Positions 4,740 through 59,205 of a stretch of 64,000 nt of DNA are shown piece after piece. The translations under genes and the position numbers were made by a program. The first letter of the stretch is position 1. Every line of letters begins with the position of its first letter. The notes under the pieces were generated by a model. The model was not told the origin of the DNA. It made no database searches and saw only the letters and a program-made list of their open reading frames with translations. Origin of the DNA: Anaerolineae bacterium. Lineage in GTDB: Bacteria; Chloroflexota; Anaerolineae; JAADDB01. The stretch spans positions 3,955 to 67,954 of the forward strand of contig WFQU01000129.1 of assembly GCA_015486845.1 (NCBI GenBank). The letters run 5' to 3'.

Positions 4740-5016
4740 GGAGTTATCATGAGCCTATGGCACACCACAGCGGCTGAAAACGAAGCGGCTGGTGTCAAGC
4801 CTTTAGGTGGGTTGGTGGGTCTACCACCGGCTAAAGCCTCGATGCCGGTACGGTGGCGGGGTACGTCAAAGTTGCGTCCGCTGCCAAAAGGCTGCTCAAC
4901 ACTAGCCCCCTTTCAGGGGGCTTCTTGGCGACGTAGCACGGGGATTTGACCCCCGTGCGCTCGGGCGGAGAACGCTGTCGATTAGAAGTTCAACTTCTCG
5001 CAGAAGTTGAACTTCT
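4740..5016 (+). repeat. Composite dispersed repeat made of module S (gagttatcATGagcctRYggcRcaccacagcggMtgaaaa), the 200-bp module R2 and the terminal palindromic hairpin H
   Basis: About 85 to 90 percent identical to the copies at 22210..22400 and 50211..50471, and to the inverted copy at 16014..16200. It ends with GAAGTTCAACTTCTcgcAGAAGTTGAACTTC at 4985..5015. The track ORF 4674..4949 lies inside this repeat and is probably spurious. Confidence 0.85.
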
Positions 5017-5059
5017 TAAAGATACTCTGCGCCTTTGCGCCGCTGCGTCAACTGATTTT

Positions 5060-5150
5060 CAAGGGAGTTATCATGAGCCTACGGCGCACCACAGCGGATG
5101 AAAATTAAGATCAGCGTGCATCAGCGTTAATCTGCGTTCTATTTTCAGAG
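5060..5150 (+). repeat. Second, shorter repeat block: module S followed by leader module L' (gatcagcgtgcatcagcgttaatctgcgttctattttcagaggag)
   Basis: Same motif set as 50527..50590, 25390..25435 and 45308..45335. Confidence 0.8.
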
Positions 5151-5190
5151 GAGATAATTCTTGGATGCTTACCAAGACAGTTTTGGGCCG

Positions 5191-5490
5191 TTATAGCATC
5201 TCAATCTGTGTATTCACGATTTCCGCATCTACGCGCCATGCTTCCAGCGCGTTCAGTGCCTTTTGGAGTAAGCCCTCGGCGTAGCGGTGATCATTGCTAA
5301 TGCAAACTAAACCTAAAAGTGCTTGCTGAGGACGATCCAAATAGCCCACTTCGGCAGCAGCCAGGTTAAATTGGTTGTGCAGCCGGGTTAGCACCGATTT
5401 TACCAGACGCCGTTTTGTCTTCAGGGAATGGCTATAAGCGATATAAAGTTCCACGGTGGCCAAGCCAATGACTATTTGTGTGCCGTCCAT
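5191..5490 (-). CDS. DUF503-family protein (YlxP-like)
   Basis: 99 aa with the typical DUF503 pattern (LELYIAYSHSLKTKRRLVKSV...). Confidence 0.6.
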   Translation of the reverse strand: MDGTQIVIGLATVELYIAYSHSLKTKRRLVKSVLTRLHNQFNLAAAEVGYLDRPQQALLGLVCISNDHRYAEGLLQKALNALEAWRVDAEIVNTQIEML

Positions 5491-6287
5491 GCCTCATTCC
5501 CGTAGCGTTGTTCCTGAATTTCCCGGGCTAGAGCAATTTCAGGCTCACTTAATGCCTCCTGGTGCAGTTGGATATCCAGGGCTCGCTTGAAACCATCGGC
5601 CAGCGCAGCTGTGGCTTTTGTCCAACTAACAGGCCGGCCCAAAGTTTCTCGCAAAGTGGTTGCCCGGTGCAATAACCGGCGTCGCAGCATTTCCCGTTCT
5701 GCCGCGGGGAGCGCCAAATAACGAGTCAGCCGGGTGACGTCGCCACGCAGCGGCAAAGCACCGTGCTGCAATACCCAGTCCCGGCGCCTGGTCTGGGCGC
5801 TGCCGATGAGCTTGCGTCCCTGTGCGTCGATGATCTCGTAAGCAGAAGGCACCTCGAAACAGACAGCGCTCACATCGGACGGTGTGCGGCTCTCCCCCGG
5901 GGCCTCTTCCACCGACACGCCCAACTGCCGTAGCCCCAACAACAAACCCTGGCTGATCTGCAGGTAGACATCCAGCACATTGCCCTGCAGCAGAGGGTGA
6001 CCAGTCGGTCCGGCCACGCTGTAAGTCAGTTCGTCCGTGTGCAAAATGGCCCGGCCGCCAGTGGGCCGACGCACCACATCGATCCCATCGCGCCGGCAAG
6101 CCGCCCTATCGATTTCCGCCACCGGCTGGTGCCGCCCCAACGAAACGCATGCCGGCCGCCAGGCATAGAAACGAAGGGTCGGCGGCACAGCACCGGAAGC
6201 CGTCTGCTGAGCAATAGCTTCATCGACCGCCATGTTCCAACTTCCGCTCTGCGGATTAGATTGTATGATTAACCGCCATCTGTCCAT
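5472..6287 (-). CDS. Lipoate-protein ligase / octanoyltransferase family protein (BPL/LPL catalytic domain)
   Basis: LplA/LipB-like catalytic-domain pattern (RRPTGGRAILH...). It overlaps the DUF503 gene by 19 nt. The true start may be the internal Met at about 6233. Confidence 0.65.
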   Translation of the reverse strand: MDRWRLIIQSNPQSGSWNMAVDEAIAQQTASGAVPPTLRFYAWRPACVSLGRHQPVAEIDRAACRRDGIDVVRRPTGGRAILHTDELTYSVAGPTGHPLLQGNVLDVYLQISQGLLLGLRQLGVSVEEAPGESRTPSDVSAVCFEVPSAYEIIDAQGRKLIGSAQTRRRDWVLQHGALPLRGDVTRLTRYLALPAAEREMLRRRLLHRATTLRETLGRPVSWTKATAALADGFKRALDIQLHQEALSEPEIALAREIQEQRYGNEAWTAHK

Positions 6288-6389
6288 TGCTCTTCACCCG
6301 AAATGCATAACTGTAGTATAATCCAACATGTTTCGCTCGACGTCGAGCGCTTTGTCCTGTTTCCCCCATAGACATTCACCTGAGCACGA

Positions 6390-7562
6390 ATGGAGGTTAC
6401 CATGACACGCAGTCGCTTGGAATTAGAAGAATACGAGCAACGTTCCTTAGCTCCTTATGCCATGAAAAGCAGCGAAAGTCAAGGACGGCGCTATCCGGAC
6501 GACGAAGACGCCTTCCGGTCACGCTTCCAGAAGGATCGCGATCGTATCATTCACACCACCGCTTTCCGCCGGCTGGCGTACAAAACACAAGTGTTTGTCT
6601 ATTACGAAGGCGATCACTACCGCACTCGCCTAACCCATTCCATTGAAGTCGCCCAAATCGGGACCTCACTGGCCCGCGCTTTACGCTGCAATGAGGATTT
6701 AACGGAAGCGATCTGCCTGGCCCACGATTTAGGCCATCCGCCTTTCGGGCACACCGGGGAAGGGGCGCTAAACGAGCTGATGGCCGGCCATGGCGGCTTC
6801 GATCACCAGCGGCAGACCATGCGCATCCTGGAAAAACTGGAAGTCGCCTACCCTGACTTTCCCGGCCTAAATCTGACCTACGAAGTGCGGGAAGGCTTGG
6901 TCAAGCACGATACGGATTACGATGTGACCAATGCCCATGGCTACGAACCGGACAAAGCCGGCACCTTGGAATGTCAGTTGGCTAATTTAGCGGACGAAAT
7001 TGCTTACAACACGAGCGATTTAGACGATGGTCTGCGCAGCGATGTATTGCATTTAGAAGAAGTCGCTCAGCTCACACTTTGGCAGGATGCACTACGATCT
7101 TTGGGCATGTCGGAAATCACGCATTTGAATCACTTGCTGCGGGCGCGCATCATCCGTCGTCTGGTAAGTTTCGAGATTAACGATGCGATTCAGGCTACGG
7201 CAGCAGCGCTGACCCACTATGATATCCATTCGTTGGCAGACTTGCGCAACCAGAAAGAAAATACAGCCCGGTTCTCCGGGCCCATGGAGAGCAAAAACCG
7301 CCAGCTCAAAGCATTCTTGATGGAAAAATTCTACCACCACTATCGCGTCATGCGCATGGCCACCAAAGCGCAGCGGGTGCTGAATGATCTTTTCAACGCG
7401 TATGTGAGCGACCCACGACAGCTGCCGCCAGAAACACAAGCCAAGTTCGCCTGTGAGCCCGGCGGCGTAGAAAGAGTGATCTGCGATTACATTGCCGGTA
7501 TGACTGATCGTTACGCTTTGGAGGAACACCAGAAACTATTCGATCCTACAGTGCGCGTGTGA
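6390..7562 (+). CDS. dgt: dGTP triphosphohydrolase-like HD-domain protein
   Basis: HD motif (HSIEVAQIG...HDLGHPPFGH) with the typical dGTPase N- and C-terminal regions. 390 aa. Confidence 0.8.
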   Translation: MEVTMTRSRLELEEYEQRSLAPYAMKSSESQGRRYPDDEDAFRSRFQKDRDRIIHTTAFRRLAYKTQVFVYYEGDHYRTRLTHSIEVAQIGTSLARALRCNEDLTEAICLAHDLGHPPFGHTGEGALNELMAGHGGFDHQRQTMRILEKLEVAYPDFPGLNLTYEVREGLVKHDTDYDVTNAHGYEPDKAGTLECQLANLADEIAYNTSDLDDGLRSDVLHLEEVAQLTLWQDALRSLGMSEITHLNHLLRARIIRRLVSFEINDAIQATAAALTHYDIHSLADLRNQKENTARFSGPMESKNRQLKAFLMEKFYHHYRVMRMATKAQRVLNDLFNAYVSDPRQLPPETQAKFACEPGGVERVICDYIAGMTDRYALEEHQKLFDPTVRV

Positions 7563-7677
7563 TGCGTGTTACGCAGAGAGGGCTTTAGGAAATAAGCCAT
7601 GTTGTAACCTTTATGCGCTTTTTGCATCACATTAAAAGATGTACCCTATGTTCTTTTACGTGGGGAGAGATATATGT

Positions 7678-7709
7678 CATGCGGGAAAGAGATACACCTT
7701 TCCCGCATG
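7678..7709. other. Perfect 12-bp-stem hairpin (CATGCGGGAAAG agatacac CTTTCCCGCATG) in the dgt-trxB spacer
   Basis: Seen directly in the sequence. There is no T-tract after it, so it is more likely regulatory or structural than an intrinsic terminator. Confidence 0.4.
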
Positions 7710-7811
7710 GTACGTCTTGGCAACATAAAAATGTAGATGAGGGAAATAGCTGTGGAATTTTCACTGTTTGGTACAACAGAAGAAACTAACCAGGATGTAA
7801 AACCGACGGAA

Positions 7812-8756
7812 ATGAAGCCGGAGCCGGATATTCGCAATGTCATTGTCATCGGGTCGGGGCCGGCCGGTTTGGCTGCCGGCTTATATACCGCCCGTGCACA
7901 TTTAGAGCCCCTTTTACTAACAGGCAACGATATTGGCGGCCAAGTCTCGCTGACCTCGGAAGTCGAGAACTATCCCGGCTTCCCGGCAAGCATCACGGGG
8001 CCAGAACTCGTGCAAAAGATGCAAGAGCAAGCAGAGAAATTCGGTGTTGATGTGCGCATCGACACCGTAACAGATGCCAATTTGGACGTCTATCCATTTG
8101 AATTAACAACTTATGAAGGCACTTACAAAACAAAAGCTTTGGTAATTGCCACCGGTGCTACGCCACGTAAACTCGACGTTCCCGGCGAGGAACGGTTAAT
8201 CGGTCGTGGCGTTTCTTACTGTGCGACGTGCGACGGCTGGTTTTTCAACGGCAAAGAGGTCGTGGTGGTCGGAGGCGGGGATAGTGCGTTAGAAGAAGGT
8301 CTTTTTCTGACCCGATTCGCCTCTAAAGTTACCATCATTCACCGACGAGACAAACTGCGGGCCGGCAAAACACTGCAAAAGCGCGCCTTCAATAATGATA
8401 AGATCGCATTCATCTGGAACTCAGTCGTGGAAGAAATTATCGGCGACGAAAAAGTATCCGGCGTGCGGCTGCACAACAAGGTCACCGGGGAAGATTCTGT
8501 GTTCTCCACGGATGGCGTTTTCATTTTCATTGGGCACACGCCGAATTCGCAGCTTTTCCAGGAACAATTAGAGGTCGATGAACACGGATACTTAGTTGTC
8601 GATAGACATTACAGCACCAGTAAGGAAGGGGTCTGGGCCGCCGGCGAAATTGCTGATTCGACTTTCCGGCAGGTGGTCACCTCGGCCGGCATGGGTGCTT
8701 CGGCTGCGATCATGGTAGAACGCTGGTTGGGCGAGAAAGCGGCTGAAGAAGCATAA
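7812..8756 (+). CDS. trxB: Thioredoxin-disulfide reductase
   Basis: FAD-binding GSGPAG motif, redox-active CATCDG, and an NADPH-binding motif. The start was chosen at MKPEPDIRNVIVIGSGPAG. The annotated upstream ATG at 7737 or a GTG at 7752 are also possible. Confidence 0.85.
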   Translation: MKPEPDIRNVIVIGSGPAGLAAGLYTARAHLEPLLLTGNDIGGQVSLTSEVENYPGFPASITGPELVQKMQEQAEKFGVDVRIDTVTDANLDVYPFELTTYEGTYKTKALVIATGATPRKLDVPGEERLIGRGVSYCATCDGWFFNGKEVVVVGGGDSALEEGLFLTRFASKVTIIHRRDKLRAGKTLQKRAFNNDKIAFIWNSVVEEIIGDEKVSGVRLHNKVTGEDSVFSTDGVFIFIGHTPNSQLFQEQLEVDEHGYLVVDRHYSTSKEGVWAAGEIADSTFRQVVTSAGMGASAAIMVERWLGEKAAEEA

Positions 8757-8784
8757 AGCCGCTTTTCTATAGCCGCTACACCAA

Positions 8785-8822
8785 AAAGAGGCAGGTCTCC
8801 GTCGACGGAGACCTGCCTCTTT
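8785..8822. terminator. Perfect 38-bp palindrome (AAAGAGGCAGGTCTCCGTCGACGGAGACCTGCCTCTTT), a likely bidirectional terminator between the convergent genes trxB (+) and kbl-like (-)
   Basis: The palindrome is seen directly. It is flanked by A and T runs on both sides, as expected for convergent transcripts. Confidence 0.6.
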
Positions 8823-8847
8823 CAGTTAGAAATTCAACTTCTGAGCA

Positions 8848-10032: not shown

Positions 10033-10326
10033 TTTGTTCCTTTCTCATGACATGGCACTTTGCCTATTTACTGCTCATAAATACCGATAAAGATTTCAAA
10101 GGCACAAACCCCGTTGCAATCCCATTATTTCCCTCCTTGCGCACTCCGCGTTCTCGGCGGTAAAAGTCTTTTAGTAAAGCCATCCTTTTATCCTGATAGG
10201 TATTCTCAATTTTTTAGGGGTATTTTCCCACCTGACGACGTTGTCAGGCGCGTTTTCGATGTCGCCAGCAATATAAACCACACGGGGAATTTCGTCAAGT
10301 GATGCGTAAAAACGCGGCGTAATCGG

Positions 10327-11944: not shown

Positions 11945-14900
11945 TCAATTTTTGGGTAGCTGGAACGCTTGCACCCGGCAAGTAGCGCTATCCACCACTA
12001 CGATCCGGTTGCCGCGCAGGCTGTCGATACCCAACGGCAGGGTGAACAGGTTCGCACCGCCGAACTGGCCATACGGCGTGCCGTCCGCTTCGTAAATCTG
12101 CACGCTCTTCGTCGTCGGGACGGTCACGGCAATCCGATCAGGCGGCAAGACAGCCAAATGCGGCGCATCCACGCTGTTGTGCTGGCCAACAAACCAGTTT
12201 CGCAAGACATTTCCTTGTGCGTCGAAAGCCCAGATTCGACCGGAAGCCGATTCGGCAGCGAAAATCAGCCCGGAAGGGATAACTGCTACGTCCACAGGCT
12301 GCCCCGGCCCAAACAGTTGCTTTTTACCACCGATCTGTGCCAAGGTGTGACCTTGTTGATCCATCTTGACAACCCGCACACCGCCGGTATCAGCCACGTA
12401 CAGATTGCCGCCCGGCCCGGTCGTTAGGCCACGCGGACGATACCATGGGCTTTCCGGCCGCACTATAGCAATGAGCTTGCCGTCCGGCGTGAAATGTTTG
12501 AGCAATTGCAACACGGAATCCAAAACCCAGACTGTGCCATCTGGCGCCACGGCCACATCGAACGGTTCCTCGAACTGATCAGGGCCACTCCCGGCGCTGC
12601 CCCAAGCGGTAATGAACTTCCCATCTGCGTCCAGTTTGACAATGCGACGGTTGCCACTATCGGCAACGTAAATCTGGCCACAGCGACAAACGGCCACCCC
12701 GCGTGGCTTGGCGAATTCGCCGTCACCGCTGCCACAATGGCCCGTTTGCCACAATTTTTGCACGGCCAACGCGGGCAAAGATTGCCGTTTAGCAGGGAAA
12801 CTCGCGGCGGGTTTTCCGGCTGGTGGCGTATTGGGCTGGGGCGTCTGCCCTGATAATGACGCAGGCGGCATTACAGCCAACGGCGGTGGCGGCAAGTGCA
12901 ACGTTTCTGGAATTTGATCGCCAACAATGGGAAACAAATAAGTGAGCGGTATCACTGATTGCCCCGCGCCGGGCGGCGTCCACGACAGCGTCAGCGCCCG
13001 GCCACCGCCGTTCTGGAAATAGTCTAAACGAATTTTGTGGAATCCGGCATCCAGATGAATAGCGCCTGCTTTAAACATGGCACCGTGGCTGCCGCCGTTA
13101 TCCACCACCAGTTTGTCGTCGATCCAGAGCATGGAACCGTCATCAGAACGGGTGGCGAAGCCGTAACGGCCGCTCTTCGGCGCGGCGATGTAGCCCACCC
13201 AGCGGATGCTGAACGGTTCCCGCAAAATATTATTGGGCATGATGAACAGGTCTCGCCGCACCACCGCCGGCATGCCTTGCCAATTATTGTTGGGATAATA
13301 ATAGCCTACCAAGCCATTGTCACCGATATTCAGTGTGTATAGCGCCCCTCGCCCAACCGTTGCCGAGGGCATGCCTTCCCCGGCCCAGGAGAGACGCAAC
13401 CGCCCCGGCGTTCCGCCGCTATAATATGACAGCGTGAACGGGTAAAACCCAGCTACCAAGAATTTTGTAACTTGCTGGTCGCCGTGATTGGCCGCAATGA
13501 GCACGTCCTGGCCCAAATGCAGCATCGTGCGCCCCGAAGTGGACAGTTTAAACGTGTAATGGCCGAACTTCGGCACCAACAGCGTGCCGTGCAATTTCAG
13601 GGTGAAAGCCCCTTGCAGCGGCGCTTTCTGGCTGAAGTCGAAGTCCACGGCTGCTACTTTCTGATGCAACAAAGGTCGGCCAGACGCCTTATCACCGGCG
13701 TAGAAATCTGCGGTTAAACCACCTGCTTCGTGCAAAGCAGCCACTGGCACCCGATAGCTGAGGAAAAGTGTGCCGCCGAAAGGATCACGATGTTCCCGGA
13801 AGGCGCCATCCGGGTAAAGCTGTTGAAGAAGTGGAATGACCTGCCGGTCGGCCGTGTTGAGAATGTAAACGACATCGCCTTGCACTGGCCGGCGCAGTGG
13901 CACATCGCGCGTCAAATCCAACGATTGGACCTTTTTTTGCCCGATAAGCTTCACGGCGGAGTGATGGCTGTAATCAGGATCCACTAAAATAGTTGTAGTC
14001 GAGGGAAGGCCATGGATAAACTGGCCGATGGCGGATTCTTGCGGGCTGAACGCTAAGACGACGCTGGGGTTATGGACCTGAACGACAAAATAGTCGTGTA
14101 AACCGGCTTTAGCGCCAAACAGGGCAATGAGCAGTAATAACGCGTAGAGCCAGCCCCGCCCTGTTCTCCCCCAAGCGTGTTGCCAGGCGTCGGCGCCTTG
14201 CTGCAAAATCTCTCCGGCCAACAGAAACGCTAACGGCAAGATCATGACTACCCGCCGGGCATTAGGTGCTTCATGCACTACAGTGAAAATGGCCGTGCTG
14301 ATGCCTACCAGGAACCAGGTCGTGTAGAGAAAGCCCAGCGGCTTCCAAAAATAGCGCAGTGCGTAGAAAAGTCCCACTAGCGCCAGGGCGCCGACGATGG
14401 GGCCCAACATGGGTGCGCCGGGCAGGTTGTTCAGCGCGGCTAAGTCGCCCCGGAAATTGAACATTAACAATACTTTGCGGGCATTATCCACCACCGGCTG
14501 GTAGCTGCCGGCCCGGGCGACATCGCCGAGCACGGAAATATGTTGGGTGCGGCTGAGGAAGATATGCCAATGCCGGCTGACATACGCCAAGAGCGGCAAA
14601 CTTCCCAACGCCGCGGAGAGGGTGAAAAGCACCATCCCTTGCAAATCAGTGCGCCAGCGTGACGATTTTTGCACGCCCAGTCGGATTAACCAGTAAATAA
14701 AATAAAGCATGATCCAGGCCGGTACAACCCGAAAAGCCGTGTAGCTATTCAGTCCCAGGGCCAACATCAACCCACCCCACAGCCAGTGGCTGCGTTTGCC
14801 GCTTTCCTGTGCTTTGAGGATGAAATAGACCAACAACGAAAGGAAGAGCGGCACCAAGATCAGTTCATACACGATGCGGCTGATGGTGATGTGCCAGCGG

Positions 14901-15655
14901 GCCACGGCAAACAGCGCTGTGATGGTCAACGCCACCGGTGGCTTGAAGCGCAGCCGGGCTAACGGGTAAAAAGCAGCCATAGTGAGCGTGCCTACGACCG
15001 CCGAGAGCAAGCGCATAGAGACCACGGAGACACCGAAAAGCTGGAAAAAGAGCGCAATCAGATAGGTGAATAGTGTCGCCTGCCCTTCATTCGTTTCGGC
15101 ATAAGGAATGTAAGGGGCACCATGTAGCCATTTGAGTGCATCCAGGCCATTGTTGCCTTCGTCGGACTGACAACCAAAGGGAAAGGAAGCGATATGCCAA
15201 ACGCGCACCACAAACGCTACCATGATGATTAAAAACAGAACGAGCAATTCCCAACGATGCCTGCGGAACCAGGTTTTGCACCGCTCTAAGAACGGCCGCC
15301 GACCAGGCAACACGCCTTCGAAATAACCACTGATCAAGAAGATAAATATACCGATCAACCATAACCAGAATGGCCAGCCGTCGTAGCGATTCGCCCGTTG
15401 CCAAAAGCCGAAGAGGGCACTAAGGCCCAAAAGCAGGCCCGCGCCGGCTAACAATTCTCCTAAGTGCCACCAGGGACGTGCCGCTATCGCCCCATCGGGC
15501 CAAGAGGGTAGCGGTTTAGCTTGCCAAAGGAAAATAACAATGGCCATCGCGAAAAGGATAAAGCCATCCAGGGGGATGGGTTTGGGCACATGCCAGAAAT
15601 GTTCTGCCCACAGAGCAATCAGCACAGCGATGGAAAGCCAGGTAAAACGTTTCAT
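11945..15655 (-). CDS. Large multidomain protein of 1236 aa. The N-terminal half is a polytopic GT-C-fold glycosyltransferase (ArnT/PMT-like, GT39/GT83 type, with a DE motif in the first loop). The C-terminal half has two PA14 domains, a proline-rich linker and a six-bladed NHL-repeat beta-propeller.
   Basis: The true start is MKRFTWLSIAVLIALW at 15655, with an AGGGAG ribosome-binding site supplied by a repeat module. There are more than ten predicted transmembrane segments, and the loop motif FPFGCQSDEGNNGLDALKW fits the DE loop. Two PA14-like segments are present (...FTLKLHGTLLVPKFGHYTFKLSTSGRTMLHL... and ...FSIRWVGYIAAPKSGRYGFATRSDDGSMLWIDDKLVVDNGG...). NHL repeats follow (...PRGVAVCRCGQIYVADSGNRRIVKLDADGKFI... 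repeated). Confidence 0.75.
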   Translation of the reverse strand: MKRFTWLSIAVLIALWAEHFWHVPKPIPLDGFILFAMAIVIFLWQAKPLPSWPDGAIAARPWWHLGELLAGAGLLLGLSALFGFWQRANRYDGWPFWLWLIGIFIFLISGYFEGVLPGRRPFLERCKTWFRRHRWELLVLFLIIMVAFVVRVWHIASFPFGCQSDEGNNGLDALKWLHGAPYIPYAETNEGQATLFTYLIALFFQLFGVSVVSMRLLSAVVGTLTMAAFYPLARLRFKPPVALTITALFAVARWHITISRIVYELILVPLFLSLLVYFILKAQESGKRSHWLWGGLMLALGLNSYTAFRVVPAWIMLYFIYWLIRLGVQKSSRWRTDLQGMVLFTLSAALGSLPLLAYVSRHWHIFLSRTQHISVLGDVARAGSYQPVVDNARKVLLMFNFRGDLAALNNLPGAPMLGPIVGALALVGLFYALRYFWKPLGFLYTTWFLVGISTAIFTVVHEAPNARRVVMILPLAFLLAGEILQQGADAWQHAWGRTGRGWLYALLLLIALFGAKAGLHDYFVVQVHNPSVVLAFSPQESAIGQFIHGLPSTTTILVDPDYSHHSAVKLIGQKKVQSLDLTRDVPLRRPVQGDVVYILNTADRQVIPLLQQLYPDGAFREHRDPFGGTLFLSYRVPVAALHEAGGLTADFYAGDKASGRPLLHQKVAAVDFDFSQKAPLQGAFTLKLHGTLLVPKFGHYTFKLSTSGRTMLHLGQDVLIAANHGDQQVTKFLVAGFYPFTLSYYSGGTPGRLRLSWAGEGMPSATVGRGALYTLNIGDNGLVGYYYPNNNWQGMPAVVRRDLFIMPNNILREPFSIRWVGYIAAPKSGRYGFATRSDDGSMLWIDDKLVVDNGGSHGAMFKAGAIHLDAGFHKIRLDYFQNGGGRALTLSWTPPGAGQSVIPLTYLFPIVGDQIPETLHLPPPPLAVMPPASLSGQTPQPNTPPAGKPAASFPAKRQSLPALAVQKLWQTGHCGSGDGEFAKPRGVAVCRCGQIYVADSGNRRIVKLDADGKFITAWGSAGSGPDQFEEPFDVAVAPDGTVWVLDSVLQLLKHFTPDGKLIAIVRPESPWYRPRGLTTGPGGNLYVADTGGVRVVKMDQQGHTLAQIGGKKQLFGPGQPVDVAVIPSGLIFAAESASGRIWAFDAQGNVLRNWFVGQHNSVDAPHLAVLPPDRIAVTVPTTKSVQIYEADGTPYGQFGGANLFTLPLGIDSLRGNRIVVVDSATCRVQAFQLPKN

Positions 15656-15690
15656 GCGCACACTCCCTTGAAAATAAACTTCTCTGGAGG

Positions 15691-15725
15691 GTAGCCGAGG
15701 GCAATGCCTTCGGCTACCCTCTGTA
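15691..15725 (-). promoter_or_regulatory. Perfect 13-bp-stem hairpin (GAGGGTAGCCGAgggcaatgccTTCGGCTACCCTC) in the 5' leader of the giant GT-C/PA14/NHL gene. A GC-only hairpin (CCCCTCCCCgtatcGGGGAGGGG) lies further upstream at 15785..15807.
   Basis: Seen directly. It lies between the presumed promoter and the AGGGAG Shine-Dalgarno sequence. Confidence 0.35.
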
Positions 15726-16013
15726 CCGTCTTTGAAAAAAAGACCTCTCCCCTGGCTTGCCGCCCAAAGGGGCGGCAAGCCTCCCCCTCCCCGTATCGGG
15801 GAGGGGGAAAAGCTAAGCGCAGCGCCTTCAAATTAGTCGTGTCATTGCGAGCGAAGCGACAGTGTGATCCTCTTTTTGGTCAAGCAATCTCCAATGATAG
15901 TGAGAGAGAGTGCCACGGCCCTGCCGGGCCTCGCAATGACAAACTTCTCTGAAAATAAGTTGATGCAGCAGCGCCAAGGCACAGGGCGTCTAAAAAAATC
16001 AGGCCTCCTTTTA

Positions 16014-16200
16014 GAGGTTCAACTTCTTCAAGAAGTTGAACCTCTCCGGCGTTTTCCGCCCGAGCGCACGGGGGTCAAATCCCCGTGCTACGTCGCCAAG
16101 AAGCCCCCTGAAAGGGGGCTGGCGTTGAGCAGCCCGTTTGCAGCGGATGCTGCCTTGACGTACCCCGCCGCCGCACCGGAATCGGAACCGCATATCCTCA
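16014..16200 (-). repeat. Inverted-orientation partial copy of the composite repeat (hairpin H plus module R2)
   Basis: GAGGTTCAACTTCTtcaAGAAGTTGAACCTC at 16014..16044, followed by the reverse complement of the R2 core (ccgcccgagcgcacgggggtcaaatccccgtgctacgtcgccaagaagccccctgaaagggggct...). Confidence 0.8.
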
Positions 16201-22055: not shown

Positions 22056-22400
22056 CTAGAAGTTCAACTTCTTCAAGAAGTTGAACTTCTAGAACGGCAA
22101 CATCTGCAAAATCGCCCTACGGCGATTAGCATGCAACCTGCGTAGGCAAGTTTCGCAGCTGTGGCAGCGATTTCTAATCGCAGGGCGAAGCAGCCTGTGT
22201 TGACCTACGTCCCATTCCGGTGGGCCGGCCCCTTGCCGCCGCGGCGGCGGGGTACGTCGGTCCGCTGCCAAGAGGCTGCTCAACACCAGCCCCCTTTTAG
22301 GGGGCTTCTTGGCGACGTAGTACGGGGATTTGACCCCCGTGCGCTCGGGCGGAGAACGCTGTCGATTGGAAGTTCAACTTCTCGCAGAAGTTGAACTTCT
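22056..22400. repeat. Repeat cluster made of hairpin H (22056..22093), an inverted R1-family copy (22089..22200), an R2 copy (22210..22365) and a second hairpin H (22369..22399)
   Basis: The sequence ctaGAAGTTCAACTTCTtcaAGAAGTTGAACTTCtag is followed by acatctgcaaaatcgccctacggcgatt..., then the R2 core and GAAGTTCAACTTCTcgcAGAAGTTGAACTTC. The track ORFs 22089..22286, 22161..22394 and 22280..22494 lie inside the repeats. Confidence 0.85.
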
Positions 22401-22514
22401 TTAAAAAATTGACCACGCATGTTGTTGTTGCCTGGAACGTTGTCGGCGTTGGGGATAGTTTTGCGCCAATCAGCCATGACATAACGGAGTCCATTTTTGA
22501 CTATTGTTTTTTTA

Positions 22515-22566
22515 TCTGCGTGCGCAGCCTGCGTTAATCTGCGTCCTATTTTTATTTTCAGAGGAG
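22515..22566 (+). repeat. Leader module L (ttatctgcgtgcgcagcctgcgttaatctgcgtcctatttttattttcagaggag), positioned 75 nt upstream of the fabD start
   Basis: Near-identical blocks occur at 50715..50782 (where it supplies the secG Shine-Dalgarno) and at 59135..59203. Confidence 0.8.
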
Positions 22567-22641
22567 ATTGATTTTAATCTCTGCACCTTAGCGGCTCCGC
22601 GTCGAGCTTTTAGTTCCGGCCTGTCCCGGTTAGGAGAATTC

Positions 22642-25212: not shown

Positions 25213-25284
25213 CGTGTTGCCGGAGGCTACATAACGGCTCAGCCCAGGTCAAATGGAACGCTGATGGGCCCAGCGACAAAAGTC

Positions 25285-25435
25285 ACGGCAACAATCTGCA
25301 AAATCGCCCTACGGCGATTAGCTTGCAGCCTGCGCAGGCAGGTTTCGCAGCTGTGGCAGCGATTTCTAATCGCCGGACAAGGCAGACTGCGTTAATCAGC
25401 GTTCTATTTTCCAGAGCATTCTATTTTCAAAGGAG
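25285..25435. repeat. Inverted R1-family copy (caacaatctgcaaaatcgccctacggcgattagcttgcagcctgcgcaggcaggtttcgcagctgtggcagcgatttctaatcgcc...) fused to leader module L' (gcgttaatcagcgttctattttccagagcattctattttcaaaggag), which ends 10 nt before the next start codon
   Basis: Direct comparison with 2128..2503 (reverse complement) and with 22089..22200. Confidence 0.8.
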
Positions 25436-25444
25436 ATTGTTTCA

Positions 25445-44765: not shown

Positions 44766-45363
44766 CTCTATTTTATTGAGACATGGGCACAAAAGTATAG
44801 CATAGCAAAACGTTTTCTCAAAAGCGTAGTTGCTAATAACCTCGGGCTATTGGTATAGCCAGTCGTGACTCATCCGAAAACAGGCTCACCGCGGAATACG
44901 CAACGTGCGCCGCGGTCAAATTAGTGTGATTTTAGCAACTATTTGCTTCCGAAACTGTAACTGCTCGTTTCTGATAAAACAGTGGCGCCGGCACGGGCCG
45001 GCGGCCGGCCTGTGCCGGCACGCAGACAGGCGCACCATAGCGGCTGAAAACGCCCCCTATCCCCCAACCTTGGGGGGAGCAACATGCCCCAGCCCTCCGA
45101 AAAAGGGTCTTGGCTACGCCGGATCTGGTTCGTTGCGGGCAGCACTCCCTCTCGCCACGCTGCGGTCTGCCGCTATCCTGTTGGCAACGAGCGCATAGCC
45201 CGTGTTGTCGTCGTGCGTTGGTATGCGCTTAATCGTGGCTAATCGTATGAGCCGGGTCTGATAACATGAATTTTCGTGTTGCTGGCGTAATATATTTGAG
45301 ATCAGCGTTGATCAGCGTTCTATTTTCAAATGAAACAAAATTGCTGGTCGCAAGCAGCTTTGT

Positions 45364-48358: not shown

Positions 48359-48454
48359 GCGCTGATCAGCCAACAGGAGTGAACCGCGTCCTGTTTTGTT
48401 AGTCATTGGCGTTGCCCTCCAGCAATGTGCTGGGGGGCGATTTTTTGCCGGGGA

Positions 48455-48556
48455 GTTATCATAAGCCCGACAAGGTGGAGAAGTTCAACTTCTGTCAGAA
48501 GTTGAACTTCTCCACCGGAAAGTTTTCTTGACGCTTTGCGTCGGCTATTTTCAAGG
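48455..48556 (+). repeat. Repeat block made of a partial module S, hairpin H (48479..48510) and leader module T (ttttcttgacgctttgcgtcggctattttcaagggacagc), ending 6 nt before the birA ATG
   Basis: GAAGTTCAACTTCTgtcAGAAGTTGAACTTC. The T module also occurs at 52955..53020 upstream of the PBP gene. Confidence 0.8.
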
Positions 48557-48562
48557 GACAGC

Positions 48563-49342: not shown

Positions 49343-49470
49343 ACCAGCCGCTATTTGTCTCCGCCACGGGCAATATTTGACAGGCACGCTGCCTTATCAT
49401 AGGATTGTGGATGAAATGCTATAGTGTTACGGTAATGTAATTTTCAAGAGAGTAAAGGGGTAAGAAGTTA

Positions 49471-50210: not shown

Positions 50211-50782
50211 TTGTCACAAGCCCGCCACAGCGGCTGAAAAACTGCGGCTGGTGTAAGCCTTTAGGTGGGTTGGTGAGTCTATTACCGACTAAAGCTTCGA
50301 TTCCGGTACGGCGGCGGGGTACGTCAAGGTAGCGTCTGTTGCCAAGAGGCGACTCAACACCAGCCCCCTTTCTGGTGGCTTCTTGGCGACGTAGCACGGG
50401 CCTTTGACCTCCGTGCGCTTGGGCAGGGAACGCCGTCGATTAAAGTTCAACTTTTTGAAAAAGTTGAACTTCTTAAAGGAGACCTGATTTTGAAGGGACT
50501 GTTTCCGTATTGCCTGCGTAATATATTTGAGATCAGCGTTAATCAGCGTTCTATTTTCAAGGGAGTTATCATGGGCCTGCGGCACACCACAGCGGATGAA
50601 AACCTATGGCTGGACTCGAGCCTTTAGGCGGTTTTGTAGCGTTACCCCCGGCTAAAGCCTCGAGTCCGGCGCAATGGGAGCTATTTTCAGGGGAGAATCT
50701 GTTACTAATTTCTTGACCATTGTTTTTTATCTGCGTGCGCAGCCTGCGTTGATCTGCGTCCCATTTTTATTTTCAGAGGAGG
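50211..50782 (+). repeat. Largest repeat cluster in the window. It contains module S with the R2 copy (50211..50440), hairpin H (50443..50471), a second S with leader L' block (50510..50610), and leader module L (50715..50782), whose AGGAGG is the secG Shine-Dalgarno sequence.
   Basis: Direct alignment with the copies at 4740..5150 and 22160..22566. The upstream part of track ORF 50674..51012 is repeat sequence. Confidence 0.85.
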
Positions 50783-50790
50783 TTTTGAGA

Positions 50791-51012: not shown

Positions 51013-51027
51013 TTTGGTCTTATCGCG

Positions 51028-52683: not shown

Positions 52684-52701
52684 ACACGGTAACATTGGTG
52701 A

Positions 52702-52733
52702 GACGTTCAACTTCTCAAAGAAGTTGAACGTCT
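52702..52733. repeat. Hairpin H variant with compensatory outer-stem changes (GACGTTCAACTTCTcaaAGAAGTTGAACGTC)
   Basis: Same invariant core as the other copies. The outer base pair has switched from A:T to C:G. Confidence 0.85.
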
Positions 52734-52954
52734 TCACCGGAAAGCTCCGTGCTACGTTAATGGGAAGCCCCCTTCAGGGGGCTGAAGTCACGCAGCCCGC
52801 TTCAGCGGGCTTGGACTTGCTGTAGCCCGGCGGCTTTAGCCCCGGGCAGGTTTGCGGTGCGGCTTCAATTGCGGTTGTGATCAGCGGCAATGAATTAGGT
52901 GCCCCTGATGCGGCAGATTTAATCCTGAGACGGCAGGTCACGGACCTGCCTGGA

Positions 52955-53020
52955 ACGCGGCAAAAAGCTTTTTTGACGCTCGGCGTCTTTGCGGCTCAGC
53001 GTCGGCTATTTGCAAAGGGA
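52955..53020 (+). repeat. Leader module T (ttttttgacgctcggcgtctttgcggctcagcgtcggctatttgcaaagggag), ending 13 nt before the PBP1A start
   Basis: Homologous to 48521..48556. It supplies the GGGAG Shine-Dalgarno sequence. Confidence 0.75.
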
Positions 53021-53033
53021 GTCATAGAACGTT

Positions 53034-56000: not shown

Positions 56001-56165
56001 GGGGGAGCTGGGAGTAATCCCAGCGGAACCCGGCTACCAGTCGGCCCCATTTGGTCCTATCGCCGACCACAACAGCAACCAGTAGCTACCCTGCCAGGCG
56101 CCCGTCCGCCCGAGCTGTGGGCTGAGGGCCAGGCCCGAGAGCGTCAAGGGCCAAGAAAGACATGA
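53034..56165 (+). CDS. Class A penicillin-binding protein (transglycosylase plus transpeptidase) with a C-terminal extension of about 300 aa, beta-rich and probably Ig/Fn-like
   Basis: GT51 motifs (EDRSFYTNPGVN, GGSSITQQL) and transpeptidase motifs SxxK (GSSFKP), SxN and KTG (AKTGTTND). 1043 aa. Confidence 0.9.
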   Translation: MQNIDLVRIIRRRRGRRVRHQSISVPGWTWRLTIANIAVVIAVVVSLLMVSGGTATAVYLHFARQLPDPSAIETKQEKFETVRIYDRTGKHLLYEAIDPRPYRGDRTYEPLRDISPWLQKATIALEDRSFYTNPGVNVRGIARAFFANLQGQSVQGGSSITQQLIKSVLFSYHERVSRSFTRKIKEVIMAVEITRRYPKNKILEWYLNYNFYGNAAYGIEAASRIYFDKPAKDLDLAEAAMLAHLPQYPALNPINNPIDAKRRQKKVLQAMVSAGYITQAQADAAFAEPLDVRKSAAERYHINDAPHFALYVLHELDHRYNTPQDPFRIWKEGLVVYTTLDYDLQKQAEKIAREHIKALEADKKVDRNAHNAAVVVLRPSTGEVLAMVGSLDFYNNAINGQVNMVTANRQPGSSFKPFTYMTGFAGKFSPASMVLDVRTVFPDPQTGVYVPENYSRTYHGPQSLRQALQRSLNIPAVWLMSQVGVRNVLKTAHKMGITTLNQDYYGLSLTLGGGEVKLIDMAYAFGVMANNGYMAGKPVPVDQQRLGYRVLNPVSILLVKDKDGKVIDQFTKPEITQVITPQLAYMMNNVLSDPKPRPMTFGRFAKYLQLPDGRPVAAKTGTTNDFRDAWTIGYTPQIVTGVWVGNANNDAMNHISGAVGAAPIWQDVMKYALRDTKPMSFTEPPGIVHMDICWPSGLLVTDACKQVHAVQKDIFLPKNVPTKPDNVWQVFRINRQNGKLATPYTPPELIDEKIFEILPPHADDWIRQAHVPQPPRQYDDTYANVVLNGDTVIAQPRPYAYVHEMVEIRGNARAGRGYHILLGQGLAPKTWQQIGPDHWNHVSNNVLEYLDTRTFPDGVYTLRLAVLNGSGEVNDIPIVIDNTPPKVEITSPTYDELFVKEDDEWVMVQVNATDQWAMDKVIFSIDGTDFATSTVPPYNQRWNIVISDTKVYTETRWLTVKAFDKAGNETDSDPLPIRVISKKKKLPAEGGAGSNPSGTRLPVGPIWSYRRPQQQPVATLPGARPPELWAEGQARERQGPRKT

Positions 56166-56169
56166 TAAT

Positions 56170-56967
56170 ATGCGTTTACCTTTAATTTTACTGACCAACG
56201 ATGACGGCGTGGACGCGCCGGGATTGCTGGCGCTCCGCCAGGCGCTTGTCGATATCGCCGAAGTGGTTGTTTTTGCGCCCAGCCACAATTGGTCCGCGGC
56301 CGGACACACGAAAACGATGCATAAGCCGATGCGGGCTTATCCGGTCACGCTGGCCGATGGCTCGCCGGCTACGGCGACCACCGGCGCGCCTTCGGATTGT
56401 GTGGCGTTGGCGCTGCTGGGATTATTGGACCGCAAGCCGGATTTGGTCATTTCCGGCATCAACCTGGGCGCTAATTTAGGTTTCGATATTACATATTCCG
56501 GCACAGTGGCCGGTGCCATGGAAGGGGTCGTGGCCGGCATTCCCGGCATCGCTTGTTCCCAGGAATTCGACAAAGACAGCACTCGGCCCGATTTTGGGTT
56601 GGCCGCGCAAGCGTGCCGTGAGGTGATTCATCGTGTATTGTTACACGGATTGCCCGACAAGATTTTTCTGAACGTTAATGTTCCATTGCACTCGGCTATC
56701 CAGCCACGCATCCGCATTAGCCGCTTGGGGAAACGGGTCTACCGGGACAAATTAATCGTCCGGGAAGACCCGCGTGGGCAGCCTTACTATTGGATCGGCG
56801 GTGAAGCGCCCACCGGTGTTTATCAATCGGGAACCGATGTCGCTATTCTACAGGAAGGTGATATTTCCGTAACCCCCCTTTCTTTGGACCTGACGGCTAT
56901 GGAACTCATGGATGTGCTGAAAAGTTGGCGCTGGAAACGAAATCTATCTAGTATCAAAAATCATTGA
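56170..56967 (+). CDS. surE: 5'/3'-nucleotidase SurE
   Basis: SurE N-terminal motif (ILLTNDDGVDAPGL). 265 aa. Confidence 0.9.
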   Translation: MRLPLILLTNDDGVDAPGLLALRQALVDIAEVVVFAPSHNWSAAGHTKTMHKPMRAYPVTLADGSPATATTGAPSDCVALALLGLLDRKPDLVISGINLGANLGFDITYSGTVAGAMEGVVAGIPGIACSQEFDKDSTRPDFGLAAQACREVIHRVLLHGLPDKIFLNVNVPLHSAIQPRIRISRLGKRVYRDKLIVREDPRGQPYYWIGGEAPTGVYQSGTDVAILQEGDISVTPLSLDLTAMELMDVLKSWRWKRNLSSIKNH

Positions 56968-57860
56968 CGGTATATGGAGGCCTACACGTGCACAGATCGG
57001 CTGCTGGGGTGATTTTGCCCGCTGCTAAAACGGATGTAGCCCAAGAAGGATTATTGCTGGCTTTTGGGAGCTTCGTCGCCGGCATACTAATATTAATGCT
57101 TGTGATCAAGCGTCCGTGGGGTATCGTTTCTTACCTCTTACTGCTGATCGCCATTCTCGTTACGGCTGTGGCCGCACGCTTGGCATACCGCAGTTACGCA
57201 CTGATGCGGTTGCGGTATCAAATCAATCGCGATGCGGTTTTCATTTATTGGGGGTGGAGCCGGTACACACTGCCGCTACCGAACATCGAGGGCATCAGAG
57301 CACAGCGCACGCCAGAAATAGAGCCACCGCTTTCCCGCTGGCAGGCTATTTGGCGTTGGCCGGCGGCGTTTGTCGGTCGTACCTTAACGGCAAACGGCCC
57401 TGTGTTCGTTTTAGCCAGCCAGCCCACGCCCCAGCAGTTGCTCCTGGAAGTGAATCGGGGCATACCTTGCGCCCTTTCCCCGGCCGATCCGGAAGCATTC
57501 CTGCAAACACTGTCCATTCGCCATCACCTGGGCCCTAATCGGCGCCTGGAAGCCGGGTTCTCAGCGCCGGTTTTATGGCGGGCGCCTTTGCTGCACGACC
57601 GCTTAGCGCTCTCTCTCCTTCTGACCGGATGGCTGCTACTTTTTGGATTACTAACCTACTTGACCTGGCATTGGCCGGCAGCGCAGTGGAGCCAGGAGCA
57701 GAGAGCACTATTGCTAATAGCGGCTATCATTTCGTTGGTGAATAGTGTGGCCGGTCTTTTGCTCTACGCGTTACAACGTTGGGAAAGTTATTTACTCTGG
57801 AGCGCCACTGTGCTAATCAACGGCATTGCGTTCATGGCACTCTTTTTAATTCCGGGCTAA
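56964..57860 (+). CDS. Hypothetical polytopic membrane protein, possibly of the bacterial PH-domain (YdbS/YdbT-like) type
   Basis: Multiple transmembrane helices and no strong family motif. The start is uncertain. Confidence 0.45.
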   Translation: MTVYGGLHVHRSAAGVILPAAKTDVAQEGLLLAFGSFVAGILILMLVIKRPWGIVSYLLLLIAILVTAVAARLAYRSYALMRLRYQINRDAVFIYWGWSRYTLPLPNIEGIRAQRTPEIEPPLSRWQAIWRWPAAFVGRTLTANGPVFVLASQPTPQQLLLEVNRGIPCALSPADPEAFLQTLSIRHHLGPNRRLEAGFSAPVLWRAPLLHDRLALSLLLTGWLLLFGLLTYLTWHWPAAQWSQEQRALLLIAAIISLVNSVAGLLLYALQRWESYLLWSATVLINGIAFMALFLIPG

Positions 57861-57861
57861 A

Positions 57862-58692
57862 ATGTGGCGCTCTCCGTGGTGCGTGGGTGCGTTCATCAGC
57901 AGTTGCATCGTAAGTGCGGCGTACTGGCGGCGTGATCTTTCCCTTAGCGGCCTGTTCGCAGCGTTCCTTTTGGGATTATTCGTTTATGTCGCCGGCGGCG
58001 TCGTGTGGAGCATTGTTTTGGTCGCATTCTTCCTTTCCGCCTCGGCGCTCTCACATGTGCAAACGGCCAACAAACGGAGCGTGATGATCGCATTTGCCAA
58101 AGGCGGGCAGCGGGATGCGGCACAGGTATTAGCTAACGGTAGTATCGCACTGTTAGCGGCATTGTTTGTGCTCTGGTCAGGCCGGTGCGGTCTGGGCAGC
58201 AACACAGCCTGGCTAATTTTCTTGGCTTCTCTTGCCGGGGCCACAGCGGACACCTGGGCCACAGAAATTGGCACGCTTCGGCCGGGAGAGCCCCGTTTGT
58301 TGACGACCTTGCAATCCGTGCCGGCCGGTCGTTCCGGCGGCGTGACCTGGCTGGGCTCGCTTGCGGCGCTCGGCGGAGCAAGCTTCATCACTTTGACGGC
58401 GTGGGGCGCACTGCTATTGTGGCCGGGGCCGTGGCGATTTTCCGCCGAGCTGGCTATATGGGGCATTCTCGCCGGCCTGGTCGGCTCCTTTGTGGATAGT
58501 CTCCTCGGCGCCACCCTGCAAGCCCAGTATTTCTGCCCCCGTTGCGCAAAAATCACCGAAGCCCGCGTGCATCATTGCGGCACGCCGACCATTTACCGGA
58601 GCGGTTGGCGCTGGCTGAACAACGATTGGGTGAACTTCTTCAGTCTGTGTGCCGCTGCCGTCGTGGTCATCTTCGGCTCCCTGCTTTTCTGA
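57862..58692 (+). CDS. DUF92/TMEM19-like integral membrane protein. The assignment is tentative.
   Basis: About 270 aa with 6 to 7 transmembrane helices and a KGGQRDAAQVLANG motif, consistent with DUF92. Confidence 0.5.
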   Translation: MWRSPWCVGAFISSCIVSAAYWRRDLSLSGLFAAFLLGLFVYVAGGVVWSIVLVAFFLSASALSHVQTANKRSVMIAFAKGGQRDAAQVLANGSIALLAALFVLWSGRCGLGSNTAWLIFLASLAGATADTWATEIGTLRPGEPRLLTTLQSVPAGRSGGVTWLGSLAALGGASFITLTAWGALLLWPGPWRFSAELAIWGILAGLVGSFVDSLLGATLQAQYFCPRCAKITEARVHHCGTPTIYRSGWRWLNNDWVNFFSLCAAAVVVIFGSLLF

Positions 58693-58704
58693 GAAGACAT
58701 CATG

Positions 58705-59205
58705 AGACTACGGCCTGCCTTGTGCGCTGCGCGCGGACAGGCACACCATAGCGGATGAAAGTCGGCCGATAGCCGGTAGGCGTTCGCCGTTAGCAAATAT
58801 ATAAGCGGACGTTGCTGGAGCATTAATCGTGGGGAGCTGAAGCCGCACCGAAAGTGCCTGCAGCCAGGCGACCACCTACGTGGTCGCGACGACGCCAACG
58901 CACAAGAGCGAGACATTCAACTTCTGAGAGAAATTGAATGTCTGCACTGCGGTTGAAACCGCGGCACAGGAAACCGGCAAAGCAGTTCGCCCGTGCGTAG
59001 TGCAGTTTTGGCTGCTGGCAGCTGGAGCTTAGCCTTTTGGCAGCCTGGAAGCGTCGACACCGGCTAAAGCCTCGACTCCAGTGCTGGGGAAAGTGTCGCA
59101 CTTTTTTCGCGACGACATCTTCGGGATCGTTTTTTGACCGTTGTTTTTTTATCTGCGTGCGCAGCCTGCGTTTATCTGCGTCCCATTTCATTTTCAAGGG
59201 AGGGC
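58705..59205. repeat. Repeat cluster made of an S-like module (58705..58760), hairpin H variant GACATTCAACTTCTgagAGAAATTGAATGTC (58912..58942) and leader module L (59135..59203)
   Basis: Alignment with the other copies. It marks the boundary of an islet that looks lower in GC. Confidence 0.8.

Follow-up and report, generated by a model that had tools for sequence, protein, structure and literature searches.

A compact palindrome family in one Chloroflexota lineage, probably a REP/REPIN family linked to a RAYT-type transposase

Introduction

To our knowledge, work on repetitive extragenic palindromes (REPs) and their REP-associated tyrosine transposases (RAYTs) has dealt almost wholly with Proteobacteria and to some extent with Cyanobacteria. 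In E. coli, REPs stabilize mRNA and terminate transcription (cited in PMC6006769). The REPINs of Pseudomonas fluorescens SBW25 are inverted doublets that fold into one long hairpin; compensatory changes are common in them, singlets are rare and look decayed, the copies are scattered at random over extragenic DNA, and the family is linked to a RAYT (Bertels & Rainey 2011, PMC3116915). Within the Chloroflexi, the GTAG-23 REP of Thermomicrobium roseum is among the GTAG-tagged families (Di Nocera et al. 2013, PMC3733652). Among the TnpA_Y1 proteins, subclass 2.6, from Bacteroidetes, and class 3, from Planctomycetes, Acidobacteria and Proteobacteria, have ‘atypical secondary structures’ at their flanks (Quentin et al. 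2018, PMC6006769). Here we describe a palindrome that occurs eight times in a 64-kb stretch of DNA from an Anaerolineae bacterium (assembly GCA_015486845.1, contig WFQU01000129.1; the whole stretch is called the window below), together with a gene that it brackets in related genomes.

We conclude, with a probability of roughly 85%, that these palindromes are a REP/REPIN family, linked in related genomes to a single-domain HUH/Y1 transposase of the RAYT (TnpA_REP) type. The family would be domesticated mobile DNA of a known kind, in a lineage that is new for it and with unusual compactness and symmetry. REPs as such were already known from Chloroflexi (PMC3733652); what is new is this family, and what is unusual about it is that it has no canonical GTAG tag and that its arms are self-palindromic.

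The palindrome is a doublet of one self-complementary 15-mer

The window was searched with the pattern TTCAACTTCT-N3-AGAAGTTGAA, allowing at most two mismatches, and 100 dinucleotide-preserving shuffles served as control. Eight palindromes of the form AGAAGTTCAACTTCT-NNN-AGAAGTTGAACTTCT were found in the 64 kb, with core positions at 4989, 16018, 22063, 22373, 48484, 50446, 52706 and 58916, and none in the shuffles. This is a density of about one per 8 kb. An earlier reading of the letters alone, referred to here as the sequence-only reading, had listed eight 31-nt palindromes; six of its starts are exact and two are off by one (48480, not 48479, and 50442, not 50443). The half-copy that it placed at 8825-8842, GTTAGAAATTCAACTTCT, is present.

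The paired stem is 15 bp long (AGAAG+TTCAACTTCT), not 14 as had been thought, and beyond it pairing is at chance level (18-35%). With its flanks the consensus is AGAAG-TTCAACTTCT-NNN-AGAAGTTGAA-CTTCT. Both arms are perfect palindromes of 7+1+7 nt (AGAAGTT-C-AACTTCT on the left, with its reverse complement on the right), so that the element is both an inverted and a near-direct repeat of one 15-mer. The two 15-mers of a doublet differ in the central base only. In all the sequence gathered, the C-centered 15-mer precedes the G-centered one, across 3-4 nt, in 165 doublets; the reverse order does not occur, and solo 15-mers are very few. In the listed loci of other genomes, 103 exact copies compare with 109 half-sites, of which about 6 are solo, and the window holds one solo half-site. 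The element is thus a minimal REPIN-like doublet: the self-complementary 15-mer AGAAGTT[C/G]AACTTCT occurs twice, inverted, 3 (sometimes 4) nt apart.

We also inspected 234 feet of the hairpin. GTAG is found at 8 of these; the commonest foot is TTAG (57 of 234), the AG of which is paired within the stem. About half of the copies have neither a TTAG nor a GTAG foot, and in the other half the foot is one-sided, giving a weak polarity that comes partly from genome-specific subfamilies with their own longer flanks. On inspection of the flanks of RAYT genes, the TTAG foot had no consistent orientation with respect to the gene.

The palindrome brackets a RAYT-type gene in related genomes

The evidence that links the palindrome to a transposase comes from related genomes. 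On contig CAVVFA010000035.1 (locus L003), an open reading frame (ORF) with the motifs PNHYHLL and SRYIHRNPV was found between closely spaced palindromes. The gene, at 1935-2536, encodes a protein of about 200 amino acids when read across two frameshifts, which may be homopolymer sequencing errors of a nanopore metagenome-assembled genome (MAG) or may reflect gene decay. One palindrome lies upstream of this Y1_Tnp gene, at 1868-1900, and two lie at its 3' end, at 2503 and 2542; the last 11 codons of the gene run into the REP and read KKFNFSKKLNF.

A homology search gave 3,523 relatives of about 187 amino acids, to several of which JGI gives the name ‘REP element-mobilizing transposase RayT’. 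Seven relatives (P0006, P0002, P0011, P0019, P0026, P0014 and P0033), which are 63-82% identical and come from different assemblies and neighborhoods, were examined on their contigs. In all seven, copies of the palindrome enclose the gene, at a distance of 13-80 nt from the ATG on the upstream side and of 3-75 nt from the stop codon on the downstream side. The gene is therefore bracketed by the palindrome in eight of the eight related genomes examined (loci L003, L136, L137, L138, L140, L142, L147 and L150). In one of these (L140; GCA_037045275.1, JBAOHU010000032.1) a single RAYT gene is flanked by arrays, with 10 copies at a 52-nt period upstream (1976-2475) and 9 copies at a 62-nt period downstream (3080-3609). 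The two arrays differ in their compensated stem variant, which is AGACG...CGTCT upstream and AGAAG...CTTCT downstream.

More distant relatives, at 57-59% identity (P0105, P0107, P0068 and P0116; loci L144, L146, L153 and L154), are flanked by different palindromes, of the AGAAACC..GGTTTCT type. These take the form AGAAACCAGGTTTTT-TCTG-AAAAACCTGGTTTCT, AAACCGAGTTTT-TTCTTG-AAAACTCGGTTT or AGAAACCGAGTTTCT-TAG-AGAAACTCGGTTTCT, or of separate AGAAACC[G/C]GGTTTCT 15-mers, which in L154 are spaced 13-17 nt apart instead of 3. The sister palindromes have the same AGAA...TTCT feet, a different core, and arms that are self-complementary at 4-6 of 6-7 positions; the nested symmetry of the arms is a clade-wide design. 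The type of REP follows the lineage of the RAYT: proteins of at least 63% identity go with the AGAAGTTCAACTTCT type, and those of 57-59% with AGAAACC(A/G)(G/A)GTTT.. types. The sequence-only reading had put forward a REP-associated tyrosine transposase as its first suggestion for the recognition protein, and this suggestion is borne out by the bracketed genes and by the distant homologs with palindromes of the same design.

The family and fold of the protein were then compared with databases. The L003 protein matches the Pfam family Y1_Tnp (PF01797, ‘Transposase IS200 like’) with E = 1.2e-10 and 42 bits, against a cut-off of 23. The sole NCBIfam match is the equivalog NF047646, REP_Tyr_transpos, with E from 1e-20 to 1e-22. 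Residues H58, H60, Y118, N122 and P123 are invariant in 33 homologs, within the motifs NH[YF]H and YIHxNP. The signature Y-x-x-x-N-P marks class 2 (TnpA_REP) proteins, and the IS200 TnpA has Y-x-x-x-Q (PMC6006769). The only sequence match in the PDB is 4ER8, the E. coli TnpA_REP (E = 0.059 with the single sequence and 6e-6 with a profile). The AlphaFold model of the RAYT has a pLDDT of 92.7, and its top Foldseek match is again this structure (4ER8_A, ‘REP associated tyrosine transposase bound to a REP hairpin’; E = 1.9e-8, TM 0.62/0.69), with the IS200/IS605 TnpA proteins of ISDra2 and IS608 ranking after it at E of at least 2e-5.

In related genomes the RAYT gene often stands inside restriction-modification or defense clusters (L003 1450-5652, L142 1-3564, L138 113-3778, L140 1-5564 and L144 1-3579). 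An apparent type I restriction-modification gene, HsdR-like in a translation read by eye, lies downstream of the RAYT in L003, with an ORF of unknown function between the two. The RAYT gene has hsdM on one side and hsdS on the other in L142, and an SMC/AAA ATPase and an N6/N4 methyltransferase in these places in L138. An SNF2-PLD gene precedes it in L140, where an Eco57I-type gene is found some 2 kb downstream, and in L144 it adjoins Peptidase_C14/nSTAND genes.

Compensatory changes maintain the long hairpin

Covariation was analyzed in 116 distinct copies, drawn from the window and from 33 other genomes, with 500 shuffles as control. For most copies from outside the window, the search pattern itself had set the inner 10 pairs, which leaves the outer 5 as the unbiased ones. 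Overall, 99.0% of stem cells are paired, against 32-55% when the partner is slid by 1-3 columns. Cells in which both sides have changed number 23, compared with 1.5 ± 1.2 in the shuffles, none of which (0/500) reaches 23. Compensatory types occur in 4 of the 15 pairs: G:C to A:U; A:U to C:G, G:C or U:A; and C:G to U:A.

Since each arm is also a palindrome, the changes can be compared with two possible structures. In an arm such as AGACGTT-C-AACTTCT the new C has no partner inside the arm. The changes thus keep the long hairpin and break the mini-palindrome of the arm, which indicates that the long hairpin is what is maintained. The selection on the hairpin that the sequence-only reading had argued for is therefore upheld. 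All eight copies in the window lie outside ORFs of at least 150 amino acids (P about 8e-6 if they were placed at random).

Some details needed correction. The inner core was said never to change, which is true of six copies only: at 50446 a C:G pair beside the loop has become T:A, a compensated change, and at 58916 the core has an uncompensated G to A. The paired outer changes GAGG/CCTC, GACG/CGTC and GACA/TGTC are real, but the copy at 50442 has an A.C mismatch and that at 22368 a G.T.

Distribution across genomes and gene context

In a scan of species representatives, the exact 20-base core was found in at least 90 stretches from at least 33 other genomes. Those listed are all MAGs of Chloroflexota, labeled Ardenticatenales, Ardenticatenaceae, Promineifilaceae, Ca. 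Leptofilum or simply Anaerolineae or Chloroflexota. The family belongs to one lineage of Chloroflexota, with most of the source MAGs assigned to the Ardenticatenales, Ardenticatenaceae or Promineifilaceae. Viral contigs gave no exact match to the palindrome.

The 103 copies in the 90 listed loci are overwhelmingly intergenic. On crude ORF calls, 63 are in co-directional spacers, 12 in divergent and 10 in convergent ones, and the median distance to the upstream stop codon in these other genomes is about 20-30 nt. In the window, most copies had been thought to lie at the 3' end of R2 (a second repeat, described below) or just past a stop codon. Four of the eight do abut R2, but a single copy (52701) is within 20 nt of a stop codon, the other seven being 120-497 nt from the nearest upstream one. 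The excess past stop codons is most simply a tolerated-site effect; the hairpin might additionally act at the 3' end of mRNAs.

Flanking genes were compared for about 110 copies from 33 species, on sparse sampling and crude ORF calls, and no two copies of different species were found to share orthologs. A conserved regulon is thus unlikely, and the pattern is consistent with the turnover of a mobile repeat. Of 43 metagenome loci anchored on elongation factor P (EF-P), none carries a copy; the best of them is 70% identical, too distant for gain or loss to be judged.

Alternative explanations

The alternative that survives best is that the hairpin is primarily an RNA element, such as a factor-dependent terminator, a stabilizer of mRNA 3' ends or an RNase processing site, that is read by an RNA-binding protein, with the link to the transposase being incidental. 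Its position would suit such a role, since copies are mostly between co-directional genes and close behind the upstream stop. Stability would suit it as well: as single strands all copies fold into the 15-bp hairpin, which as RNA is very stable (-13 to -34 kcal/mol, z scores down to -8). However, no U-tract follows any copy in the window, the copy at 48479 is downstream of a separate canonical terminator, and divergent regions account for 12 of the roughly 85 copies that could be classified. Nor are transition mismatches on the sense strand biased towards G:U (3, against 5 A:C), although so small a number makes this test of selection on RNA uninformative. An RNA element would also leave unexplained the bracketing of the RAYT gene in all eight genomes, the 52- and 62-nt arrays, and the change of palindrome with RAYT divergence. 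We consider it quite improbable as the primary explanation, and this applies equally to the terminator or RNase site suggested by the sequence-only reading.

An intrinsic (Rho-independent) terminator was rejected as a candidate, the stems being A+T-rich with no T-run after any copy. A terminator scan of the region from 45 to 60 kb picked up no REP copy and found a separate terminator at 48411-48441. In Rfam 15 neither the palindrome nor R2 has a match at the gathering score, and at E up to 10 there are only chance-level microRNA and CRISPR direct repeat (CRISPR-DR) hairpins. The window is without tRNA or tmRNA genes.

A second alternative is that the Y1 gene belongs to an ordinary, active insertion sequence of the IS200/IS605 type, with these hairpins as its ends, and that the copies elsewhere in the genome are non-autonomous derivatives (palindrome-associated or miniature inverted-repeat transposable elements, PATE/MITE). 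The mechanism would be the same. The ‘IS200 like’ Pfam match agrees with this, as does the finding of the gene in a different neighborhood in each genome, often among restriction-modification and defense genes, as is seen for mobile elements. On the other hand, the tyrosine motif is YIHRNP, of class 2/TnpA_REP, and not the Y-x-x-x-Q of IS200 TnpA, and the best family and fold matches, REP_Tyr_transpos and 4ER8, come ahead of the TnpA proteins of IS608 and ISDra2. Moreover, the same symmetric palindrome is on both flanks, often in several copies or arrays, so that there are no distinct left and right ends, and tnpB was not among the neighbors of the RAYT gene in the contigs inspected. This leaves the active insertion sequence a slim chance.

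The palindrome could also serve a dimeric transcription factor as its operator, or as two 15-bp operators side by side, in the control of a regulon of, for example, lipoate, biotin or fatty-acid genes. The 7+1+7 symmetry of each arm is as expected of dimer operators, and window genes near copies include a lipoate ligase, pyruvate dehydrogenase (PDH) E1/E3, FabD and a BirA-like gene. Against this, one site per 8 kb or so is far too dense, sites are mostly just past stop codons, the outer-stem changes that keep the long hairpin break the 15-bp mini-palindromes, and the lone 15-mer is almost never seen. As no flanking gene family or ortholog is common to the 33 species, the regulon was rejected and the dimeric regulator that the sequence-only reading had also proposed is unlikely; we give an operator almost no weight. 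A DNA uptake sequence in inverted pairs, as in Neisseria, would likewise be short, conserved across the lineage and placed downstream of genes, but uptake sequences occur mostly singly and within genes, whereas here half-sites almost never stand alone and no copy is in a credible coding region, so that this idea was rejected with a probability close to nil.

Individual copies, R2 and other repeats in the window

The eight 33-nt doublets are assigned to neither strand. That at 4984..5016, AGAAGTTCAACTTCT cgc AGAAGTTGAACTTCT, is directly 3' of an R2 copy, within an 859-nt spacer between minus-strand lipoate ligase-like and DUF402 genes; its RNA fold has -23.4 kcal/mol and z -5.6. The doublet at 16013..16045 has the compensated outer pair AGAGG...CCTCT; it is located between divergent genes and adjoins an R2 copy in inverted orientation. 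At 22058..22090 the stem is a perfect 17 bp, and the copy lies 187 nt past the stop codon of E3 (lipoamide dehydrogenase). The copy at 22368..22400 has G.T as its outermost pair and is at the 3' end of an R2 copy. At 48479..48511 the stem is extended to 20 bp (GGTGG...CCACC); this copy is about 50 nt before the BirA-like gene and past an intrinsic terminator. The copy at 50441..50473, between efp and secG at an R2 3' end, combines the compensated C:G to T:A beside the loop with the A.C mismatch in the outer stem. The copy at 52701..52733, with the compensated outer pair AGACG...CGTCT, is 17 nt past the stop codon of an SBP_5 gene, and that at 58911..58943 is the most diverged, with AGACA...TGTCT compensated and one C.A mismatch in the core. 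In addition, a solo left arm, TTAGAAATTCAACTTCT, with the right arm absent, is found on the plus strand at 8826..8842, adjoining a terminator-like hairpin at 8782-8825; it is probably a decayed singlet.

R2 is fused at its 3' end to a REP in all four of its window copies. On the plus strand it occupies 4797..4983 (fused to the REP at 4984), 22181..22367 (to that at 22368) and 50255..50440 (to that at 50441), and on the minus strand, inverted, 16046..16184 (to that at 16013). The copies are 86-93% identical, with a conserved core of about 150 nt, and the REP always follows. The core folds into a closed multi-stem structure, with a consensus energy of -75 kcal/mol including the REP. R2, a strongly structured module, is species-specific; loci of related genomes, about 1 Mb in all, yielded no copy of it.

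Other repeats were also seen. Repeated upstream modules such as TTTTTTATCTGCGTGCGCAGCCTGCGTTAATCTGCGTCCTATTTTTATTTTCAGAGGAGATT and ...GCGTTCTATTTTCAAGGGAG are at 22508-22569, 50723-50784 and 59145-59206, and at 5120-5156, 25385-25438, 45301-45337 and 50532-50568. Immediately ahead of gene starts (FabD-like, SecG and others) they finish with a Shine-Dalgarno-like GGAG, and they look like shared leader or promoter cassettes. A 135-nt unit occurs three times in tandem at 2125-2529, with inverted relatives at 22096-22173 and 25280-25365. These dispersed relatives hold AATCGCC-GTAG-GGCGATT hairpins and have weak, sub-threshold Rfam matches of the CRISPR-DR28 kind; the unit may be a second repeat family, possibly GTAG-type.

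The hairpin at 8782-8825 is a perfect 18-bp G+C-rich palindrome, GAGGCAGGTCTCCGTCGACGGAGACCTGCCTC, with an A-run before it and a T-run after it in a 91-nt convergent spacer, and looks like a bidirectional intrinsic terminator. A canonical intrinsic terminator is found at 48411-48451 (a 14-bp stem at 48411-48441 followed by TTTTTT), after a 2-oxoacid:ferredoxin oxidoreductase beta gene. On the minus strand, 11945-15778 encodes a protein of 1,277 amino acids that consists of a PMT_2 glycosyltransferase-like region, PA14/GLEYA domains and NHL repeats.

Discussion

The mechanism that we propose is modeled on E. coli TnpA_REP and the TnpA of IS200/IS605. The RAYT would bind the hairpin when it is extruded in single-stranded DNA, for example in the lagging-strand template. 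The likely recognition elements are the invariant loop-proximal 10 bp and the AGAA/TTCT feet, which the enzyme may read directly, while the variable positions of the outer stem would need only to pair. By the same analogy, the catalytic tyrosine would cut and rejoin at the foot of the hairpin, giving excision, re-insertion and tandem arrays. Selection for a hairpin that the enzyme can bind would produce the covariation, and the specificity of the enzyme would produce the frozen core. As the REP is the 3' module of R2 in the source genome, part of its spread there would have been as a composite.

Several points weigh against a REP/REPIN family with a RAYT partner. The NF047646 scores, 71.5-80.1 bits, are set against a curated cut-off of 80, which one of the six proteins passes. 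A tblastn search found no RAYT homolog in the 64-kb window, two homologs sourced from NCBI proved to belong to other assemblies, and the link to a RAYT is for the source genome one by family and not direct. The canonical unpaired 5' GT[AG]G tag of classical REPs is absent, GTAG being present at 8 of the 234 feet. Finally, the sampling behind the comparison of flanking genes is sparse.

A broader proposal would go beyond this. The 23-nt core is identical, letter for letter, in 34 or more species-level genomes within a clade of order rank, and the loops of sister lineages are 3-6 nt long. The partnership might accordingly rank among the most compact and most deeply conserved of the known REPIN-RAYT pairs; the same design in sister lineages would then imply a recognition that is not guided by GTAG, for example two-fold symmetric binding of the stem, and the element might have been co-opted by the host, at operon ends as a hairpin and in R2 as its 3' module. 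We regard this wider proposal as rather unlikely.

With this family, REP/RAYT systems reach into filamentous Chloroflexota of a kind that abounds in wastewater and sediments. It provides a clean case in which one REP sequence is constant over many species together with its transposase, and a very small, symmetric substrate for asking how a Y1 enzyme reads a hairpin without a GTAG guide. The general picture of REPs is unchanged by this family. In practical terms, the palindrome is a lineage marker for these MAGs, and the R2/REP repeats break short-read assemblies of the source organism: contigs of GCA_027008065.1 and ERZ23495671 match the window at 99.9% identity and break off at or near these repeats. 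A literature search found no description of this REP family or its sequence, and the sequence matches that it gave were unrelated and primer-like.

Comparison with known systems

The system resembles the REP/BIME (bacterial interspersed mosaic element) REPtron of E. coli in having a short, high-copy extragenic palindrome and a transposase gene that is bracketed by its own REP. The protein, like E. coli TnpA_REP (4ER8, its best match in both sequence and fold), is a single HUH/Y1 domain with HxH and YxxxNP motifs. The E. coli stem, however, is imperfect and bulged, whereas the Chloroflexota stem is a perfect 15 bp, without a GTAG tag and with palindromic arms, and the two proteins, from Proteobacteria and Chloroflexota, are only about 18% identical.

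With the REPINs of SBW25 (PMC3116915) it shares the inverted doublet in one hairpin, the compensation, the rarity of singlets, the extragenic scatter and the RAYT link. It differs from them in the spacer, which is 3-4 nt here and about 70-110 nt there, so that the whole REPIN is 33 nt long, and in that the two 15-mers differ at the central base only.

The HUH/Y1 fold is common to the TnpA proteins of IS200/IS605 (IS608, ISDra2), and recognition of a hairpin in single-stranded DNA, as in those systems, is presumed here. The differences are NP in place of Q in the tyrosine motif, the lack of distinct left and right ends and of tnpB, and flanks that consist of repeated identical palindromes.

Like the GTAG-tagged REPs (PMC3733652), this is a REP family within the phylum, is found mainly downstream of coding regions between unidirectional or convergent genes, and is sometimes clustered. 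Those REPs have stems of 5-13 bp and an unpaired GTAG, in contrast to the 15-bp stem here, which has at most a weak, one-sided TTAG with the AG inside the stem.

As in subclass 2.6 and class 3 (PMC6006769), RAYT-like genes are bracketed by non-canonical hairpins that are also present elsewhere in the genome. The motifs NHYH and YIHRNP are close to the NH[LIV]H and YIH[QN]NP of subclass 2.6, a resemblance of motifs and not a class assignment. Taken as a whole, the arrangement of RAYT and REP is the REPtron, together with the co-variation of RAYT and REP, that has been described for Proteobacteria (PMC6006769, PMC3116915).

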